From IMG/VR virus record IMGVR_UViG_2703719389_000008: a DNA stretch of 9,301 nt. The stretch is one strand, 5' to 3'. This document shows positions 2,480 through 8,321 of the stretch, in pieces (within the stretch, counting starts at the first letter, position 1; every line of letters begins with the position of its first letter). The position numbers and the translations under genes are program-made. The notes under the pieces are model-generated. The model saw nothing but the letters and a program-made list of their open reading frames with translations, was not told the DNA's origin and did no database searches. This DNA comes from a virus. Taxonomy: Duplodnaviria > Heunggongvirae > Uroviricota > Caudoviricetes.

Positions 2480-5278
2480 TCAGGCACCGTGACATTTTTT
2501 GTACTTTATTCCCGAGCCACAGGGGCATTGTTCATTCCGGCCGACCGCACCAAAAACTTCAGTTAATTTAGTCTTTGCTGCTTTATGGGCAAGCTGTACG
2601 ATGTAATTTGATTGATTTTGGATTTCTTGACGCTGTACACCTGTGAGGCCTTCGATATAGGGAGCAAGGCGCTGCATTTCGACATCAGCTGCTTTATGCT
2701 GACCCGATAGTGCTAATATGACTGCGTATTGGCTTCGAACCTGAATCAGTCGATGTACTAGACCTGCCTCATTGACAACCGGCAGGACATGTTGCTCCAT
2801 GACTTCCTTGGCACCGTCGTAATCCTTTATGGCAACAAACTCATCCGCCAGATCTTGGCCCACCCTGACCATGGATTCCGGGGCCATGGCCAGATTGTAG
2901 AACTTCATCGAATGAATACGCAGTAATGGTGACAGTTTTCCCTGCGCATCACGAATTCTGGCCAGCAACTCCAGAGCATCAGCCATATGTTTAAAGTGTT
3001 CCTGCATATTTTCGGAATGATTAATAGTTTTCCATAATGCGTCGGCGTTTTTTCCTATGACATCAGCAGGTGTGATACCAAATAAAGAATAGTACCCTTG
3101 TATAACATTACAGCTTAATGTTTCAGCATCCTTGAGTTTTTTTAATCTCCAGAGTGCAATGGCATGGTTGTAGTCAAAGATGCGTTTATGTTCTTCATCT
3201 GGGAGTTGGGGGCGGACTTCCTGTGCCAGCTTTTGAACTTCTCGTGCATCATTGCTTTCTGCCGAAAATAACATTCGTTTCATTGCATAGGCCATCTCTT
3301 CTTGATAGCCGAACTTGTGCTCCGCAAGTAAAGCTCCCATGATGTTTAACCTCTGAGCAATGTGGTCGGATATTCCGTCTTTAAGCTCAACGAAAACAAG
3401 GCCATCCAATGCCCAGAATTTATGAACAGGTCCCAATAAGTCCGATGTTGCAGCACGCTCCAAGCTTGCAAGAATGTCGACCGTCACGCCCATCTCATAA
3501 AACATTTCTTGGCCTGAGAGTTCGATCAACGTCGTGACATCATTGAGCTTAATATAAAGTTGAGTCAACAACGATAACCGTTTTGTATTGCGGGTATTAT
3601 GAAGACTTTCAACTAAAAGGTCTTTCAGCGCTAGTAGCGCTTTGTTCGATATACCCTGATCCATCAGTTCCAGATGTTGCAGTCCTAGCCCCCTGACAGC
3701 ATCATGTACCTTCAGGGTCTGGTTTCCATAAATTTCAATAGTGCCAGTAGCGCGCATTTTCCTAATTAAAGAAGCAGCACTGCTTGGTGAAATGTTCAGC
3801 GAATTGATTAGGAGCGTAGAAATCTCTTCGCGACTCAGCCCTACGTCAGAGAGACTGAACAATGCCAGCGCGCTCTGAAGTAGTGATTCAAATCCCTGAA
3901 ATACACGTGACAGAATAATTTCTTGGGCGGTTTCCGCAGTATGGGTTTGTTGCTGGAGTTCAGCACACAGAGCATCGACATTACGCTCATAATCAGAAAC
4001 GGCGATTTTTGCGGCGCTCTCTACATACAGGGGAAGACCACCAGTGTAAGCCCGTAGCTGCTCGTATCCCATAGCGGTGGCAAATCCTCCGATATCGTTT
4101 ACAACGACAGCTACCGTATCGAGATTCCATCCCTGCAGGCCCTCGCGCTGTAGCCCCGTCATGACCTCCAGTTCGCGAACGTTTTCGTGAGGCTGGCACA
4201 ACAGCACAAAACGAATATGTGTAGTTGCATTCAGAACATCCAGTAGATTTTCCGCAGGTACACGATGGGCGTTATCCAGAACCAGCACCAAGGTGGTACC
4301 CTGCTCTTTCAGGTAGGTATCAAAACTCCTAAGAGCCTCAAAACCACTGGCACCGGGGAGCAAAATCCTGCGCAAACCGTCTTGGTCACGGGCTGTAAAT
4401 CTAGCAGCCATCTCGCGCACCAGCGTACTGGCCAGAGCTGGACCGGGAAGATCACCGGTGTCGTAATAAGCACAAAGTGCAGTGGAGTGTAATGCGGCCT
4501 GTGCGGCCCAAGCTGTCTTGCCTGCACCTGAGAGTCCACAAAGGATACGGATCCGCTCACCAGATGTGAGAGAAGGTTCTTCGTTCTGTGGGCGGTACAG
4601 TGCTGGTGGTGCAGGAAAGTCCTGTAGCTGAACGATCAACTGTTCAAATAGTTCAGTAAGTTCTTCCGTGAAAAACGTATGTTGTCCATTGGTATCGCCT
4701 CCGGTGGCGGCAAGCTGAACCAATCCTGCTAACTTCCAAATCAAGGATTCTGGGGACAATAGTGAAAATTTCAGCTTTTCTGCTTCTGCGATACACCATG
4801 TGGCCGCATCAGCCAGAGTACTCCATGCGGGCGGAAGTGCCGGGTGACGTCCAGCTGTCGACTGGGGCCAGACAATAAGAACATCAGAAGGAAGCTTTTT
4901 ATCGTCAATCATCTTCTGAAGCAGCGGTCCAGGCGCCTGGTTTACAATAATCACAAAAGAAGCCACCCCTTCGCGGTTTGCCGAAGTATGCTCATTTCTG
5001 AGCTTTACAAATCGCTCCAGAGCCCCCGACACATCGTTGGGCATAATAGGTTTTGAACGGGTTTTAACCTGAATGTAGAGACGTTCCTGTTTGGATTTCA
5101 GCTCAATATCCTCATCAAGCTCGACAGTTACTGAGTCCATAGCTGCCCTCTGCGCCAAAAGTAAGCAGCCTACAGCGTAAAGATGCTGGTAAAGGAACCC
5201 CCGGTGTACCGCTTCGATACGCACCAACTGCACAGGATCCAGTACGTCCAGATTTTGTTTGTTTTCACTTCCCCACAT
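2480..5278 (-). CDS. Large multidomain protein (932 aa): PD-(D/E)xK-like nuclease motif, STAND (NB-ARC-like) P-loop NTPase, TPR-like helical repeats, C-terminal SEC-C zinc ribbon; candidate NLR-like antiviral sensor
   Basis: Uninterrupted 2.8-kb ORF with AAGGAA RBS 6 nt upstream of ATG 5278. Walker A GLSGAGKT (nt 4514..4537, verified by translation), Walker B LVLVLDN (4271..4291, verified), GGLPL (about 4028..4042), VHD (aa 524-526), N-terminal D57...Q70-V-K72 (about 5063..5122), C-terminal CPCGSGIKYKKCH (2489..2527). Confidence 0.85.
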   Translation of the reverse strand: MWGSENKQNLDVLDPVQLVRIEAVHRGFLYQHLYAVGCLLLAQRAAMDSVTVELDEDIELKSKQERLYIQVKTRSKPIMPNDVSGALERFVKLRNEHTSANREGVASFVIIVNQAPGPLLQKMIDDKKLPSDVLIVWPQSTAGRHPALPPAWSTLADAATWCIAEAEKLKFSLLSPESLIWKLAGLVQLAATGGDTNGQHTFFTEELTELFEQLIVQLQDFPAPPALYRPQNEEPSLTSGERIRILCGLSGAGKTAWAAQAALHSTALCAYYDTGDLPGPALASTLVREMAARFTARDQDGLRRILLPGASGFEALRSFDTYLKEQGTTLVLVLDNAHRVPAENLLDVLNATTHIRFVLLCQPHENVRELEVMTGLQREGLQGWNLDTVAVVVNDIGGFATAMGYEQLRAYTGGLPLYVESAAKIAVSDYERNVDALCAELQQQTHTAETAQEIILSRVFQGFESLLQSALALFSLSDVGLSREEISTLLINSLNISPSSAASLIRKMRATGTIEIYGNQTLKVHDAVRGLGLQHLELMDQGISNKALLALKDLLVESLHNTRNTKRLSLLTQLYIKLNDVTTLIELSGQEMFYEMGVTVDILASLERAATSDLLGPVHKFWALDGLVFVELKDGISDHIAQRLNIMGALLAEHKFGYQEEMAYAMKRMLFSAESNDAREVQKLAQEVRPQLPDEEHKRIFDYNHAIALWRLKKLKDAETLSCNVIQGYYSLFGITPADVIGKNADALWKTINHSENMQEHFKHMADALELLARIRDAQGKLSPLLRIHSMKFYNLAMAPESMVRVGQDLADEFVAIKDYDGAKEVMEQHVLPVVNEAGLVHRLIQVRSQYAVILALSGQHKAADVEMQRLAPYIEGLTGVQRQEIQNQSNYIVQLAHKAAKTKLTEVFGAVGRNEQCPCGSGIKYKKCHGA

Positions 5279-5521: not shown

Positions 5522-5773
5522 TTAATACCGAACATTTCCCTGATAAAATTCCAGTATGCGCTGCATAACTTCGCTCTGACGACACTCGCGACAAATTATA
5601 TTCTGTCGTCTGTTGTAACGGCGTATTTCGCCATCTAGCAATGAATAAATCAGGTCAGGGTCGCTCTTCTTTTTCACTGCCGCTCTCGACATTTTTTTTG
5701 CGGGCTTTTCCCCAGTCCTTACGAGCCTGCTCCGAAGGAAATATTCCATGTCCTGAACCATATACTGCGCCAC
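5522..5773 (-). CDS. Ren-like C-terminal segment; probably the downstream half of a frameshifted 135-aa gene
   Basis: C-terminus ...NIICRECRQSEVMQRILEFYQGNVRY resembles the lambda Ren C-terminus (KECRQSAAMKRVLAVYG, from memory). Overlaps 5655..5930 in the +1 frame across an A8 run. Confidence 0.45.
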   Translation of the reverse strand: MAQYMVQDMEYFLRSRLVRTGEKPAKKMSRAAVKKKSDPDLIYSLLDGEIRRYNRRQNIICRECRQSEVMQRILEFYQGNVRY

Positions 5774-5930
5774 TAACTACCAGCTCTTTCACCAGAACTT
5801 CTATCAGGTGTCTCGTCGCCCCGGTTTCATTTTCCAGTTGTTTACGCGTTTTTCGCCCATCTCTGCGTACCAGTTCCACAATGCGCGCCTTCACTTCTTC
5901 CCGCAGTTCGGGAGTAAAAACTTTTGCCAC
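5655..5930 (-). CDS. Small HTH-like protein; probably the upstream half of the frameshifted Ren-like gene
   Basis: 91-aa ORF. Frame changes relative to 5522..5773 at the A8 homopolymer (5692..5699); an A7 tract would give one continuous 135-aa ORF. Confidence 0.45.
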   Translation of the reverse strand: MAKVFTPELREEVKARIVELVRRDGRKTRKQLENETGATRHLIEVLVKELVVSGAVYGSGHGIFPSEQARKDWGKARKKNVESGSEKEERP

Positions 5931-5967
5931 AAGCCCTCCTGAAAATTACCCCATGACCTGAAATCTG

Positions 5968-6918
5968 TTACCCTCTGAATCCCGGCGGAATTTCGGTGTC
6001 CGGTTCAGAAATATGATTAACACAACGCTGGTTGTTCGTGCCGCTTACCGGGAGCAACCAGGGGTTTTCAAAATTCCGGTCCGGTCCAAAAAACGTCGTC
6101 GCTCGCTGAACAAATTCCGTTCCCGTTTTCCCGGTAGCAGCCAGGTATCTTGTGTAACGCCTTACACCATCCAGCATGGCCTCTGGTGGCACCCCCTCGC
6201 GTAATCTGGCCTTCCAGGCACTGAAAGCGGATTTCTTCGGGTTTGCCCCGGCTCGTAACGGGTATTCCCGCCAGACCTGTTCGAACACATCCGGATAATC
6301 CACTCGTCCCACAGGCTGCCCGGTGTTTTCCGGGACTACCCGATCGGCTTCCCGCTGAATGGCGGAATCGGCTTCAGGCTGCTGCAGTTGGTGTGATTGC
6401 TCCGGCCCAGCGGTCATCGCCTGCTGCACAGCGCCCGAATCGGCTTTCAGCGCATACGCTGAATCGGCTTCCGGTGTCGTGCCTGCGGGCTGGCCAGGAG
6501 TGACGGTCTGAACATCCCCTACATGGTTCGTGGCGTTTTTTACGCCATGGACCATAGTGTTTTGATCTTCTTTATCTGTATCTCTATCTGTATCTTTATC
6601 TGTCGTGACTCGTCGTGACATGTGCGTGACATTTCGTGACGCGCCGTGACAATCGCCATTTTGTTCCCGCTTTCTTTCCCTCTCACGCTGCGCCCTCTTG
6701 CGCTCTGCCGGAGATTTTGCGGTTTGCGAAATATTGCCGTTGTCCTCTTTAAGCACCTGGCGTTTTTCCCATCCAGTGATTAAATCACCATCAAGTACCC
6801 GCCCCTGCATCGTCTGCAAAATTGAATCAATTACCTCTTCTGTCACGTCGAGCGCACTTGCCAAATCTTCTGTCGTGACATCAATGTGACCTCGCGTGAC
6901 ATTTCGTGACGCGCTCAC
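5968..6918 (-). CDS. Phage replication initiator (replisome-organizer type), main reading frame, with repeat-encoded low-complexity linker and DnaD/phage-associated-like C-terminal domain
   Basis: 316-aa ORF (GTG at 6918). Aa 15-40 EDLASALDVTEEVIDSILQTMQGRVL match the second half of the replisome-organizer N-terminal domain; linker TDKDTDRDTDKED is encoded by DNA direct repeats; C-terminal block VWREYP...AWKARL...RYTRYL...ATTFF...ENPW. Sits directly after ydaS-ydaT, the O position of a lambdoid phage. Confidence 0.7.
   Translation of the reverse strand: MSASRNVTRGHIDVTTEDLASALDVTEEVIDSILQTMQGRVLDGDLITGWEKRQVLKEDNGNISQTAKSPAERKRAQRERERKREQNGDCHGASRNVTHMSRRVTTDKDTDRDTDKEDQNTMVHGVKNATNHVGDVQTVTPGQPAGTTPEADSAYALKADSGAVQQAMTAGPEQSHQLQQPEADSAIQREADRVVPENTGQPVGRVDYPDVFEQVWREYPLRAGANPKKSAFSAWKARLREGVPPEAMLDGVRRYTRYLAATGKTGTEFVQRATTFFGPDRNFENPWLLPVSGTNNQRCVNHISEPDTEIPPGFRG
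6561..6650. repeat. Origin-like repeat block: three 12-bp tandem repeats in an AT-rich stretch plus five helically phased CGTGAC hexamers
   Basis: 12-bp units ATCTGTATCTCT / ATCTGTATCTTT / ATCTGTCGTGAC at 6574, 6586, 6598. CGTGAC at 6604, 6614, 6625, 6635, 6645 (10-11 bp spacing). Lies inside the replication gene. Confidence 0.6.
6874..6914. repeat. Second phased hexamer array, including a 21-bp exact direct repeat of the origin-like block
   Basis: (C/T)GTGAC at 6874, 6885, 6895, 6905. GCGTGACATTTCGTGACGCGC at 6894..6914 is identical to 6624..6644. Confidence 0.55.
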
Positions 6919-7039
6919 CAGGAGCGTGGATATACACTGCCATCACTGTTGCAATTGGCTGCCCTGACACCCTGGCAATTGTTCGCCACTTAGGGTCATT
7001 TGGCATGTCATGCCATAATCTGAGCCAGGCGTTAGCCAT
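6881..7039 (-). pseudogene. N-terminal fragment of the replication initiator in a different frame (52 codons); apparent +1 frame break relative to 5968..6918
   Basis: ATG at 7039 preceded by GAGGTGAG Shine-Dalgarno. Translation MANAWLRLWHDMPNDPKWRTIARVSGQPIATVMAVYIHAPGERVTKCHARSH (verified codon by codon) carries the W-L-[KR]-L...D-P-K signature of replisome-organizer N-terminal domains. Ends at TGA 6881..6883 inside the hexamer array. Confidence 0.4.
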
Positions 7040-7110
7040 ACTCACCTCTTCTGATACCGAATCTTTTTACTCACGAATTGCCGGAAGCGATTCGATATGG
7101 CTATTGTCAG

Positions 7111-7536
7111 TCAATGTACTGCCACAGCATTTCCTGCCGGGCCACCACGGTTCATCTGATTGAAACCGGCGATTGCCACTGCGACAAAATCATCAGCGTC
7201 TCTCACCAGTCGCTCCCGCGTCTCCACCAACTCCCGAAAATAAGCTGAACTGTGGCTGCGCATTCTGGCCACCAGCAAAGGTGGCATTGCCTTTTCGATC
7301 GCTGGTAACAACGCCTGAATTTTTTCAACTGCATCAGGGGTGTCTTTCTCTACCCAGCGGAAAATTTTCTGGGTATTGCGAGCCAGGGCTTCCGGATGGC
7401 TGTCGTCATACAGTTCAGGAAACGTCATACCCAACTCAAAATAAGCCTGGGTTATTCCAGCTGCTGGAACTTTTTCGCCATCAGGACGCGCCCAGGCATT
7501 CATCGCCATGCGGATGTGTTCATGCTTGATTTTCAT
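7111..7536 (-). CDS. ydaT: YdaT-family protein (141 aa), CII-like position in the early-right operon
   Basis: N-terminus MKIKHEHI... characteristic of the Rac YdaT family; start overlaps the ydaS stop by 17 nt. Confidence 0.8.
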   Translation of the reverse strand: MKIKHEHIRMAMNAWARPDGEKVPAAGITQAYFELGMTFPELYDDSHPEALARNTQKIFRWVEKDTPDAVEKIQALLPAIEKAMPPLLVARMRSHSSAYFRELVETRERLVRDADDFVAVAIAGFNQMNRGGPAGNAVAVH

Positions 7537-7801
7537 GAATCAAGCTCCTAGTAAGTGGTTGTGTTAACGTTTTGGTATCTTCCAGCTCGGGCCAAATATT
7601 CATCCAATCAAAAGGCCTTAGTTGCTGACGTGTAACTTCACCATTACTGGCTCGCTCAATAAGGACACATAACGATGCCCCTAACATTTGACCTTTACTC
7701 AATGCCTTTCTTAGATAACCGATGCTAGTACCACACTCACATGCAAACATACGCTGTTCATCTGACGAAAGAGAATTGAGAAATATTCTTAATTCTTCCA
7801 T
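7520..7801 (-). CDS. ydaS: Cro-like HTH regulator, YdaS family (93 aa)
   Basis: HTH segment GTSIGYLRKALSKGQ and conserved E(V)TRQQLRPFDW block; AAGGAG RBS 5 nt upstream of ATG 7801; divergent from the repressor gene. Confidence 0.75.
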   Translation of the reverse strand: MEELRIFLNSLSSDEQRMFACECGTSIGYLRKALSKGQMLGASLCVLIERASNGEVTRQQLRPFDWMNIWPELEDTKTLTQPLTRSLIHENQA

Positions 7802-7826: not shown

Positions 7827-7895
7827 AGAATACCCACAGGTAAACAAAAGTCAATACCCTTGGGTTGTTTACCTTGCGGTAATCGCATCTATTAT
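7827..7895. promoter_or_regulatory. Divergent immunity promoters with operator repeats
   Basis: Minus strand: -35 TTGACT (7849..7854) and -10 TATTCT (7827..7832), 16-bp spacer, driving ydaS. Plus strand: -35 TTGTTT (7865..7870) and -10 TATTAT (7890..7895) ending 6 nt before ATG 7902. 10-bp inverted repeat AGGTAAACAA (7838..7847) / TTGTTTACCT (7865..7874), third GTAAACA at 7815..7821, plus TACCC-N2-GGGT(A/T) half-palindromes at 7831..7842 and 7855..7866. Confidence 0.5.
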
Positions 7896-7901
7896 TTACC
7901 T

Positions 7902-8321
7902 ATGGACAAATATGAATTTAGACGACAACAACTCATCAAAATTCGTGATGAGAAATGCGATGGTAAAGCGGTTAACGTGGCCAGAAAGATCGGTCGCGAG
8001 CCTTCTTATGTATCAAGAATGTTGTACCCAGAGGGGAAAAAAGGAAAAAAACGGATCGCTGATGATATGGTGGAGATTATAGAAGAGTCCTTTGGGTTAC
8101 CCCGGGGATGGATGGATGGTATCGTTTCATCATCAACGAACACAGCCTCCAATTATGAAACAAGGGTTCTAACGCCACGACAACGTATTTTTTTAGATCT
8201 CTTAGACGAACTGCCAGAAAGTGAAGCGGATAACTTATTAAAAACTCTTGAAGAGAAAAAACAGTATTACAATATGATCTACGAAGAAATCCGTAAAAAG
8301 AAAGCACAAAACGCATCATAA
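7902..8321 (+). CDS. CI-like prophage repressor (RacR/DicA-type HTH protein, 139 aa)
   Basis: HTH segment GKAVNVARKIGREPSYVSRML and C-terminal LDLLDELPESEADNLL, similar in layout to DicA/RacR-type repressors. No Shine-Dalgarno before ATG 7902 and a -10 just upstream, consistent with a leaderless cI-like transcript. The track's TTG start at 7860 is rejected. Confidence 0.7.
   Translation: MDKYEFRRQQLIKIRDEKCDGKAVNVARKIGREPSYVSRMLYPEGKKGKKRIADDMVEIIEESFGLPRGWMDGIVSSSTNTASNYETRVLTPRQRIFLDLLDELPESEADNLLKTLEEKKQYYNMIYEEIRKKKAQNAS

Follow-up and report, generated by a model that had tools for sequence, protein, structure and literature searches.

A probable replication origin, built on two arrays of a hexamer word, inside the replisome-organizer gene of a Qin/Rac-like Escherichia coli prophage

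The stretch of DNA analysed here (9,301 nucleotides, IMG/VR record IMGVR_UViG_2703719389_000008, referred to as the window) is part of a lambdoid prophage of Escherichia coli of the Qin/Rac type. Its replisome-organizer gene, i.e., the gene for the putative replication initiator, contains two arrays of a short repeated word which probably belong to a replication origin. Intact alleles of this gene are 1071 bp long and encode 356 amino acids; their RefSeq names are ‘phage replisome organizer’ or ‘hypothetical protein’, and the protein matches the PHROG 3729 profile ‘replication initiation protein’ over its full length (E-value 5.5e-253, residues 1–356 of 356). In the window, alignment with intact alleles that are otherwise 99.9% identical showed that an extra C at position 6925 breaks the frame after residue 38. 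Two open reading frames (ORFs) are left, one of 52 amino acids for the N-terminal part (6881–7039) and one of 316 amino acids (5968–6918), and because of this break a list of the ORFs in the window holds only the latter. The insertion is absent from all of the best RefSeq matches; it is a sequencing error or else a pseudogenising mutation private to this DNA. Of 5426 complete E. coli genomes, 3413 match the region from 5900 to 7200 at ≥80% identity (99.9% for the best matches), and a single genome can carry up to four copies of it.

Read along the minus strand, which is the sense strand of the gene, the elements follow one another in the order: array 1 (four words), about 230 bp of coding sequence, array 2 (five words), an A+T-rich stretch of about 43 bp, a GATC, and a palindrome with 14-bp arms (Table 1). 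An earlier note on this DNA had pointed to the middle of this series, describing three 12-bp tandem repeats in an AT-rich stretch beside five CGTGAC hexamers at a spacing of 10–11 bp, in a block (6561–6650) said to encode the low-complexity linker of a replication protein. All of this is in place. On the plus strand, exact CGTGAC words start at 6604, 6614, 6625, 6635 and 6645 (spacing 10, 11, 10 and 10 bp); in the sense orientation of the gene they become GTCACG words at 6645–6650, 6635–6640, 6625–6630, 6614–6619 and 6604–6609, which occupy codon frames 1, 2, 0, 2 and 0 and encode CH..SR..VT..SR..VT. Array 2 abuts the 43-bp A+T-rich block inside the ORF, i.e., the iterons are followed directly by high A+T. 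Tandem Repeats Finder reports a 12-bp unit at 6569–6603 (2.9 copies, 91% matches), and a repeat search places the units at 6569–6580, 6581–6592 and 6593–6604, with a sense strand resembling GATAAAGATACA and encoding DKDTDRDTDKED. The minus strand of the whole block encodes CHGASRNVTHMSRRVTTDKDTDRDTDKED, a disordered linker of the 356-residue organizer. Across the window, CGTGAC/GTCACG occurs 15 times, compared to 3.97 ± 1.97 times in 200 dinucleotide-preserving shuffles (maximum 11), and nine of the 15 copies are concentrated in the 307 bp between 6604 and 6910.

The earlier note had the block in the right place, yet the element is larger than it had proposed, since a second array and a palindrome lie outside the limits it gave. 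Array 1 lies 260 bp upstream of array 2 in the organizer gene and has its words in the same orientation, at 6905–6910, 6895–6900, 6885–6890 (a variant, GTCACA) and 6874–6879. They fall in frames 2, 0, 1 and 0 and encode SRNVTRGHIDVT, residues 43–55, which form a loop of the N-terminal domain with a predicted local distance difference test (pLDDT) score below 50 at residues 47–51; this loop is the most indel-rich part of the family alignment. Most GTCACG-type relatives have kept, at gene nucleotide 191, the single inverted copy of the hexamer that lies downstream of array 1. On the other side of the A+T-rich block, the palindrome (arms 6523–6536 and 6542–6555, 86% complementary) encodes MVHGVKNATNH and is kept in relatives and in the Shigella phage 75/02 Stx, which shares only the C-terminal half of the gene, with one compensatory change from T:A to C:G; this is the only compensatory pair, among loci of little diversity, and it is confounded by the conserved peptide LVHGEK. 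On the plus strand, the palindrome and the GTTTTGA after it have the score of a hairpin like an intrinsic terminator, for transcription that would run antisense to the replication gene. The GATC is found at the same place in four divergent relatives. Other origin-associated or regulatory signals were sought around the block: near 6500–6950 there was no match to the DnaA box TTATCCACA with at most one mismatch, and matches with two mismatches were at the level of chance; sites for integration host factor (IHF) around the repeat block did not exceed chance; and for a sigma-70 promoter inside the block there was one weak match (9 of 12 positions) on the antisense strand, again at chance level.

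The coding context of the hexamers allows selection on the DNA to be separated from selection on the peptide. With nine hexamers distributed over all three frames, the same word is translated as Ser-Arg, Val-Thr or x-His, and over 26 GTCACG-type genes from different species the 174 hexamers are split 50/73/51 among the frames. Since the period of 10–11 bp is not a multiple of three and all frames are used, the hexamer arrays are not peptide repeats. It is for the same reason, i.e., that the iterons are read in all frames, that the shifted frame downstream of the extra C still spells VT/CH/SR (ERVTKCHARSH, then a stop). In the 26 genes the information content is 2.0 bits per hexamer position, compared to ≤0.6 bits in the flanks. 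Val-Thr pairs are encoded as GTC-ACG in 71 of 110 cases and Ser-Arg pairs as TCA-CGn in 52 of 70, where the codon usage of the same genes predicts 5.7% and 12.4%, respectively, so that codon choice is forced 6- to 12-fold above background. The hexamers span three codon frames and therefore the low-complexity peptide is the shadow of a DNA repeat. These results argue that selection on the hexamers acts on the DNA and not on the peptide. The 12-bp units have a codon-compatible period, with a copy number that varies among E. coli alleles. Their tandem structure was not seen in other genera, where the conserved trait is A+T richness: the A+T run always comes directly after array 2, and in relatives it is (GATAAA)n-like or purine-rich. 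From this comparison, the 12-bp tandem periodicity is judged a local E. coli feature. Further direct repeats are present on the minus strand at 6343–6381 and 6437–6470 (amino acids ~190–235; ATCGGCTTC... and GAATCGGCTT); they have a codon-compatible period of 24 bp and give the disordered linker recurring (P)EADSA motifs. Their behaviour, in contrast to that of the hexamers, is that of peptide repeats, and the segment is deleted in some E. coli alleles.

To see how far the arrays extend beyond E. coli, two surveys were used. IMG/VR was scanned for three GTCACG words spaced 4–5 bp apart, which gave 120 loci; 55 of these encode a homologue of the N-terminal domain as judged by tblastn, and 17 more were recognized by profile search. 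Most of the remaining GTCACG loci also have the look of organizers, in which a basic helix precedes the array and an acidic run follows it. Among the contigs without a homologue, L010, L016, L025, L035, L053, L092, L095 and L123 have an Arg/Lys-rich helix, the array and an acidic or A+T-rich run, and some of the non-homologue contigs are from high-GC, probably actinobacterial, phages. The hexamer and its layout may be common to several organizer families without detectable similarity in the N-terminal domain. Because the IMG/VR set had been selected by a DNA pattern, an unbiased set was made with peptide patterns from conserved parts of the domain outside the iterons, taking one genome per species. 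This set comprises 80 loci (78 usable) from Proteobacteria, Acidobacteria and others, with 36–99% identity to the E. coli protein. At least two hexamer links at 9–12 bp were found in 64 of the 78 loci and at least three in 55, compared to a maximum of 1–2 in shuffles, and 51 loci have both arrays at both conserved sites (gene nucleotides ~130–165 and ~340–460). Across the survey the hexamers are spaced by 10 bp in 201 cases and by 11 bp in 43. The usual site of array 1 is after helix 3 of the N-terminal domain; in one sub-lineage (~36–41% identity), made up of two viral contigs (L081 and L101) and L204, the first GTCACG array lies between helices 1 and 2, at gene nucleotides ~86–106. Array 1 seems, from these positions, to be re-inserted wherever the fold tolerates it.

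The word itself differs among relatives. GTCACG is used by 26–30 loci and CGAACG(C) by about 22; other words are GTAACG, GCAACG, GGAACG, GTGACG and a few more. Within any one gene the word is common to both arrays, even though these encode unrelated segments, i.e., a loop of the folded domain and a disordered linker. Thus, a podovirus from Manatee Spring has CGAACG in three copies in one array and five in the other, Ralstonia phage Firinga has five plus four copies of GCAACG, and Pseudomonas phage phita81A has four plus four copies of GTCACG. If the two arrays were not read by a single factor, such a concerted change of word would be difficult to account for. Of all the genes, just the N-terminal part of the organizer is found with the arrays throughout. 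Organizer alleles exchange their C-terminal domains, with the module exchange falling right after the block, and the neighbours depend on the relative: enterobacteria have YdaS/YdaT, Pseudomonas has unrelated small ORFs, Firinga and a cyanophage have a DnaB-like helicase downstream of the organizer, and an IstB/DnaC-like loader adjoins the organizer in four enterobacterial relatives and in none of the E. coli lineage.

The AlphaFold2 model of the organizer (mean pLDDT 62) has a confident N-terminal domain of helices and a β-hairpin (residues 1–92), a disordered segment (93–108), a helix (110–126), a long disordered segment (128–243) and a helical C-terminal domain (244–332, pLDDT mostly >80). 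When examined for the winged-helix pair of Rep-type initiators, the helices and β-hairpin of the N-terminal domain were consistent with one winged helix; HTH_Crp_2 matches five of 17 family members (best E-value 6e-6), and the top Foldseek matches, which are non-significant, are the winged-helix regulators MarR, CAP and Rex. When the N-terminal alignment was scanned for mutual information with hexamer class, columns 114 and 117 came out best, and residues encoded by the iterons themselves were near the top, as expected. Both columns lie in the helix 110–126, which is basic, and the motif was scored as xR-X1-x-x-X2-[RK]-E, where X1 is residue 114 and X2 residue 117. Loci with GTCACG have K..Q in 27 of 29 cases, and those with CGAACG have A/S/G followed by an aromatic residue (W/Y/H/F) in 22 of 22. 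In GTAACG loci X1 is V (nine) or A (two) in 11 of 12 and X2 is aromatic in 10 of 12, while K..W accompanies GGAACG (3/3) and T..Y/W accompanies GTGACG (2/2).

When relatedness is judged on the remainder of the domain, 21 of 72 loci have as their closest relative one of another hexamer class, and in most of these the motif goes with the hexamer and not with that neighbour. One such pair is L146 (ERKRAQRE, GTCACG) and L160 (ERVRRYRE, GTAACG), which are 77% identical in the core. The exception is the group of L153, L156 and L291, in which both neighbours carry A..Y. Covariation as an artefact of coding was rejected, as the X1 and X2 codons overlap iterons in one of 128 codons checked. RK..Q also precedes the GTCACG array in three distant organizer types that were found by the DNA pattern, and does not in four others. 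Taken together, this covariation suggests that the initiator itself probably binds the hexamers, through the basic helix of residues 110–126.

At the other end of the protein, residues 333–356 closely resemble the C-terminal tail of E. coli DnaT, primosomal protein I (NCBIfam, E-value 0.0015; PDB chains 6aep, 2ru8 and 9zbt, E-values 0.018–0.065). The protein does not score as a full-length DnaT equivalog, reaching 18.2 bits against a cut-off of 201, with only these 24 residues aligned; sister alleles carry the Pfam DnaT-like single-stranded-DNA-binding domain (PF17948). The C-terminal domain and its tail are proposed, on these similarities, to be a module for helicase or primosome recruitment.

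We consider it likely that the segment 6523–6910 is the replication origin of this Qin/Rac-like prophage, situated inside the gene of its own initiator. This interpretation is supported by strong comparative evidence, and the layout of the arrays is, by analogy, that of the experimentally defined origins of lambda, SPP1, TP901-1 and Tuc2009. The suggestion of the earlier note, that iterons and an A+T stretch form an origin within an initiator gene, is thus upheld at the level of sequence comparison. That note had also named the lack of the repeats in intact homologous genes as evidence that would count against an origin; they are present in intact alleles and in viable phages. Phages Evi and vB_EcoS-640R1, both viable, carry an organizer gene that is 97% identical, and in Evi the hexamers are at the same positions as in the window. 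In the mechanism that we propose, initiator molecules would occupy one word after another along one face of the helix, most likely via residues 110–126, with K114 and Q117 specifying GTCACG. Initiators stacked on the five words of array 2 would distort the DNA and melt the adjacent A+T-rich block, and the C-terminal domain with its DnaT-like tail would bring in the host DnaB-DnaC or primosome machinery for the origin to fire. The use of host DnaB-DnaC or primosome is a reasonable inference because of the DnaT-like tail, the PF17948 domain of the sister alleles, and the viability of Evi without an adjoining loader: no helicase-loader gene adjoins the organizer in Evi or in the E. coli prophages examined. 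Array 1 would be an auxiliary or control site bound by the same initiator, and may be comparable to the control sites of the P1 or F plasmids. A more specific version is possible and is put forward tentatively as a whole: that a single basic helix, and not the winged helix, reads 6-bp words, one per helical turn; that K114 and Q117 set the word and changes in them switch origin specificity (K..Q for GTCACG, A..W for CGAACG, V..Y for GTAACG); that array 1, written into a surface loop of the DNA-binding domain, serves for control; and that in the E. coli lineage the DnaT-like tail replaces a phage loader by way of host DnaT/PriA-DnaB-DnaC.

Several observations weigh against an origin of this kind. 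Clear arrays are absent from 14 of the 78 homologues. In the window the initiator gene is frameshifted, and unless the extra base is an error of sequencing, an origin here could fire only if a related prophage in the same cell supplied the initiator. The gene that follows the organizer in the window is DUF977, with no helicase-loader gene there, and helicase recruitment would depend on the 24-residue DnaT-like tail, which makes that step a conjecture. The two arrays are not in helical phase with each other: across the loci compared, the distances between them (178–350 bp) show no preferred phase modulo 10.5. The Foldseek search of the AlphaFold2 model against the PDB gave no match with an E-value below 1, and the covariation was controlled by a nearest-neighbour test, which is not tree-based. 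The kinship with known organizers is below the thresholds of the relevant models, with PF09681 at 12.8 bits against a cut-off of 23.3, in a collinear alignment of residues 5–122 with positions 1–118 of 121, and TIGR01714 at an E-value of 0.17 for one of 17 members. Finally, in the searchable literature no experimental report of binding or origin activity was found for any member of this branch.

Three other explanations of the arrays were weighed. The arrays might be initiator-binding sites that serve mainly for control, i.e., for autoregulation, for copy control by handcuffing as at P1 incA or F incC, or for titrating the initiators of related phages, with replication starting elsewhere. That two arrays of one word lie 260 bp apart, and only one of them next to an A+T-rich block, fits such a role, as does the presence of up to four related copies per E. 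coli genome, which makes cross-talk possible, and cloned lactococcal origins do act as decoys (PMC8965321). Nevertheless, the A+T-rich run, which is the signature of an unwinding element, always comes directly after array 2, and the lambda, SPP1, TP901-1 and Tuc2009 origins share exactly this layout. Control and origin roles are also compatible, and a control role is most plausible for array 1 only; as an account of the whole element we regard it as unlikely.

The repeats might instead be bound by another protein, such as a host factor, YdaS/YdaT, or a partition or packaging protein. Two clusters of short direct repeats at a pitch of one helical turn superficially resemble a type II centromere; parC of plasmid R1 has two sets of direct repeats of about 11 bp. 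This explanation is very improbable, given that only the N-terminal part of the organizer always accompanies the arrays, that the Pseudomonas, Ralstonia and cyanophage relatives lack YdaS/YdaT, that hexamer type co-varies with organizer residues, that the window contains no partition ATPase, and that the block shows neither DnaA boxes nor IHF sites. Least credible of all is that the block has no function as DNA and is a by-product of coding or mutation, i.e., a linker made by slippage or a junction of recombination between N- and C-terminal modules. The 12-bp units are codon-compatible and differ in number from allele to allele, disorder is predicted for the linker, and module exchange occurs right after the block, all as such an origin of the sequence would have it. 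For the hexamers, this explanation is refuted by the frame, information-content and codon data: neither peptide repeats nor in-frame slippage could give a period of 10–11 bp, the words fall in all three frames with forced codon choice, and two arrays with unrelated peptide products change their hexamer together. For the 12-bp periodicity itself, which lacks conservation outside E. coli, it may be true.

If the segment is the prophage origin, it has some practical consequences. The origin of this organizer region, carried by 3413 of 5426 E. coli genomes, has apparently not been mapped before; a mapped origin shows where replication of the prophage starts after induction, and the origin word indicates which co-resident prophages could cross-activate, compete with or titrate each other. 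The compact cis element of ~130 bp (~390 bp with array 1) could be used for vectors or for phage resistance of the decoy type. The hexamer switches, paired with changes of two residues in the initiator, are a data set on the evolution of origin specificity and yield a testable specificity code. An origin inside an initiator gene is a textbook principle; for the family described here it has apparently not been reported before. No paper was found on the origin of the E. coli/Proteobacteria branch, on twin arrays, on hexamer switching or on the basic-helix correlation; searches on GTCACG iterons, replisome-organizer iterons and organizers in E. coli prophages returned nothing relevant, and two ‘Eru’ papers on the replication modules of Shiga toxin (Stx) phages mention no origins or iterons for this module.

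Table 1. Features of the proposed origin, the organizer gene and its neighbours in the window (strand: + or –; a point where no strand applies).
Feature	Position	Strand	Basis or remark
Replisome-organizer / replication-initiator gene	5968..7039	–	ORFs, alignment with intact alleles, PHROG 3729
Iteron array 1, four direct hexamers, 10–11 bp pitch	6874..6910	–	Same site conserved in homologues
Single inverted hexamer copy	6842..6847	+	31 bp downstream of array 1
Basic helix, residues 110–126 (PAERKRAQRERERKREQ), proposed iteron reader	6661..6711	–	AlphaFold2 helix and covariation
K114 codon	6697–6699	–	Co-varies with iteron hexamer
Q117 codon	6688–6690	–	Co-varies with iteron hexamer
Iteron array 2 (putative origin-core array), five direct GTCACG	6604..6650	–	Homologues hold array at same position
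A+T-rich block, proposed DNA-unwinding element	6561..6603	–	72% A+T over 43 bp, against 46% for the whole organizer gene
GATC (Dam site), single	6564..6567	.	Between A+T-rich block and palindrome
Inverted repeat, 14-nucleotide arms, 5-nucleotide loop	6523..6555	.	Flanks A+T-rich block
C-terminal helical domain (residues 244–332) and 24-residue DnaT-like tail	5971..6309	–	AlphaFold2, DnaT matches, domain shuffling
DnaT-like tail, residues 333–356 (GTNNQRCVNHISEPDTEIPPGFRG)	5971–6042	–	NCBIfam, PDB chains
YdaT-like protein	7111–7536	–	Between YdaS-like gene and organizer
YdaS-like Cro-type protein	7520–7801	–	First gene leftwards from DicA-like repressor
DicA-like repressor	7860–8321	+	Divergent from organizer operon

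Read leftwards on the minus strand from the divergent DicA-like repressor, a YdaS-like and a YdaT-like gene precede the organizer (Table 1). Past the organizer, the minus strand carries in order DUF977, a gene for a 932-residue SEC-C/AAA protein, hokD and DUF968. The DUF977 (Ren-like) gene, the next after the organizer, is split in the window into overlapping minus-strand ORFs (5655–5930 and 5522–5773) that match the two halves of the Pfam model; it is also annotated as frameshifted in the closest RefSeq genome and is intact (138 amino acids) in another. The 932-residue protein (2480–5278, minus strand) has an N-terminal region resembling Cap4 nuclease, DUF4297 and LmuA, an AAA ATPase core and a C-terminal SEC-C zinc motif, and its gene, between the replication module and hokD, looks like anti-phage defence cargo of the prophage. 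At the left end of the window, the region of DUF968 and small ORFs is present as a direct duplication of ~1062 bp, 99% identical (166–465 compared with 1228–1527). A 54-bp segment occurs three times (1–54, 407–460 and 1469–1522), the window beginning within one copy, and the reference genomes examined have a single DUF968 gene at the corresponding place.

With regard to its family, the earlier note had likened the gene to those of lambdoid O-type proteins and of replisome organizers, and these two parts of the comparison fared differently. Homology to lambda O was rejected, as a Pfam scan at E-values up to 1 gave no Phage_rep_O match and returned only HTH_Crp_2 and Phage_rep_org_N, both weak. 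Kinship with the replisome organizers has better grounds. The IMG/VR locus L060 encodes a bona fide PF09681 protein (130 bits) and has the same layout, with a basic helix RLRKQRQRD, four GTCACG words and then a GATA-rich run (GATATAGATATAGATAAAG...). Alignment of the family to the L060 protein with hhalign gave a probability of 77% and an E-value of 2e-5 over 95 collinear columns. There is, on this profile comparison, moderate support for the organizer being a remote relative of the Phage_rep_org_N replisome organizers, and its most fitting place would be within the replisome-organizer superfamily, as a divergent, Gram-negative branch. ORF13 of TP901-1 was rejected as a homologue (hhalign probability 0.1; no 10-bp hexamer arrays in ORF13). 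According to the description of TIGR01714, the low-complexity region mirrors direct repeats in the DNA which can serve as a phage origin, and because this is stated there, the principle of an origin within an initiator gene is already known. A low-complexity linker that mirrors DNA direct repeats beside an A+T-rich region is found in the organizer and likewise in L060.

Among the experimentally studied organizers, SPP1 has an origin, oriL, with direct repeats as well as an AT-rich unwinding element in gene 38, which is bound by gp38 and is enough for reconstituted theta replication (PMC6316719), and TP901-1 ORF13 and Tuc2009 Rep2009 bind repeats in their own genes, which serve as the origin; when cloned, the lactococcal origins are phage-resistance decoys (PMC8965321). 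The E. coli element resembles those of PF09681, SPP1, Tuc2009 and TP901-1 in having the proposed origin within the initiator gene, with a linker that mirrors direct repeats and then an A+T-rich region, and it differs in its second array, within the coding region of the N-terminal domain, and in having no adjacent helicase loader. The tail relates the organizer to DnaT in its last 24 residues, whereas the remainder of the protein is unrelated. The plasmid replicons P1 (oriR/incA) and F (oriS/incC) have two repeat clusters with the rep gene, one joined to the unwinding element and the other for control. Likewise, the organizer gene has two clusters of one repeat, with only one adjoining the A+T-rich block. 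Plasmid iterons are 17–22 bp long with a pitch of ~22 bp and lie outside the coding sequence, and these origins use DnaA boxes and WH1-WH2 Rep initiators; in contrast, the organizer locus has no DnaA boxes, and the Pfam and Foldseek searches gave no WH1-WH2 match.

The closest parallel in overall plan is lambda, where ori comprises four iterons and a 39-bp high-AT region inside gene O, the iterons being 18-bp inverted repeats bound by O dimers, and where the protein is still functional after in-frame deletions of the A+T region (PMC6022878). The E. coli words differ from these in being asymmetric 6-bp cores in direct orientation at a pitch of 10–11 bp, the element has two arrays in place of the one of lambda, and DUF977 stands next to the organizer where the loader P stands beside O. 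A palindrome also flanks the A+T region of lambda. In both systems iterons are followed by a high-A+T region of ~40 bp in the linker-coding middle of the initiator gene, the origin or proposed origin is transcribed from the early operon, and the A+T deletions tolerated in lambda parallel the variation in linker length among the E. coli alleles.

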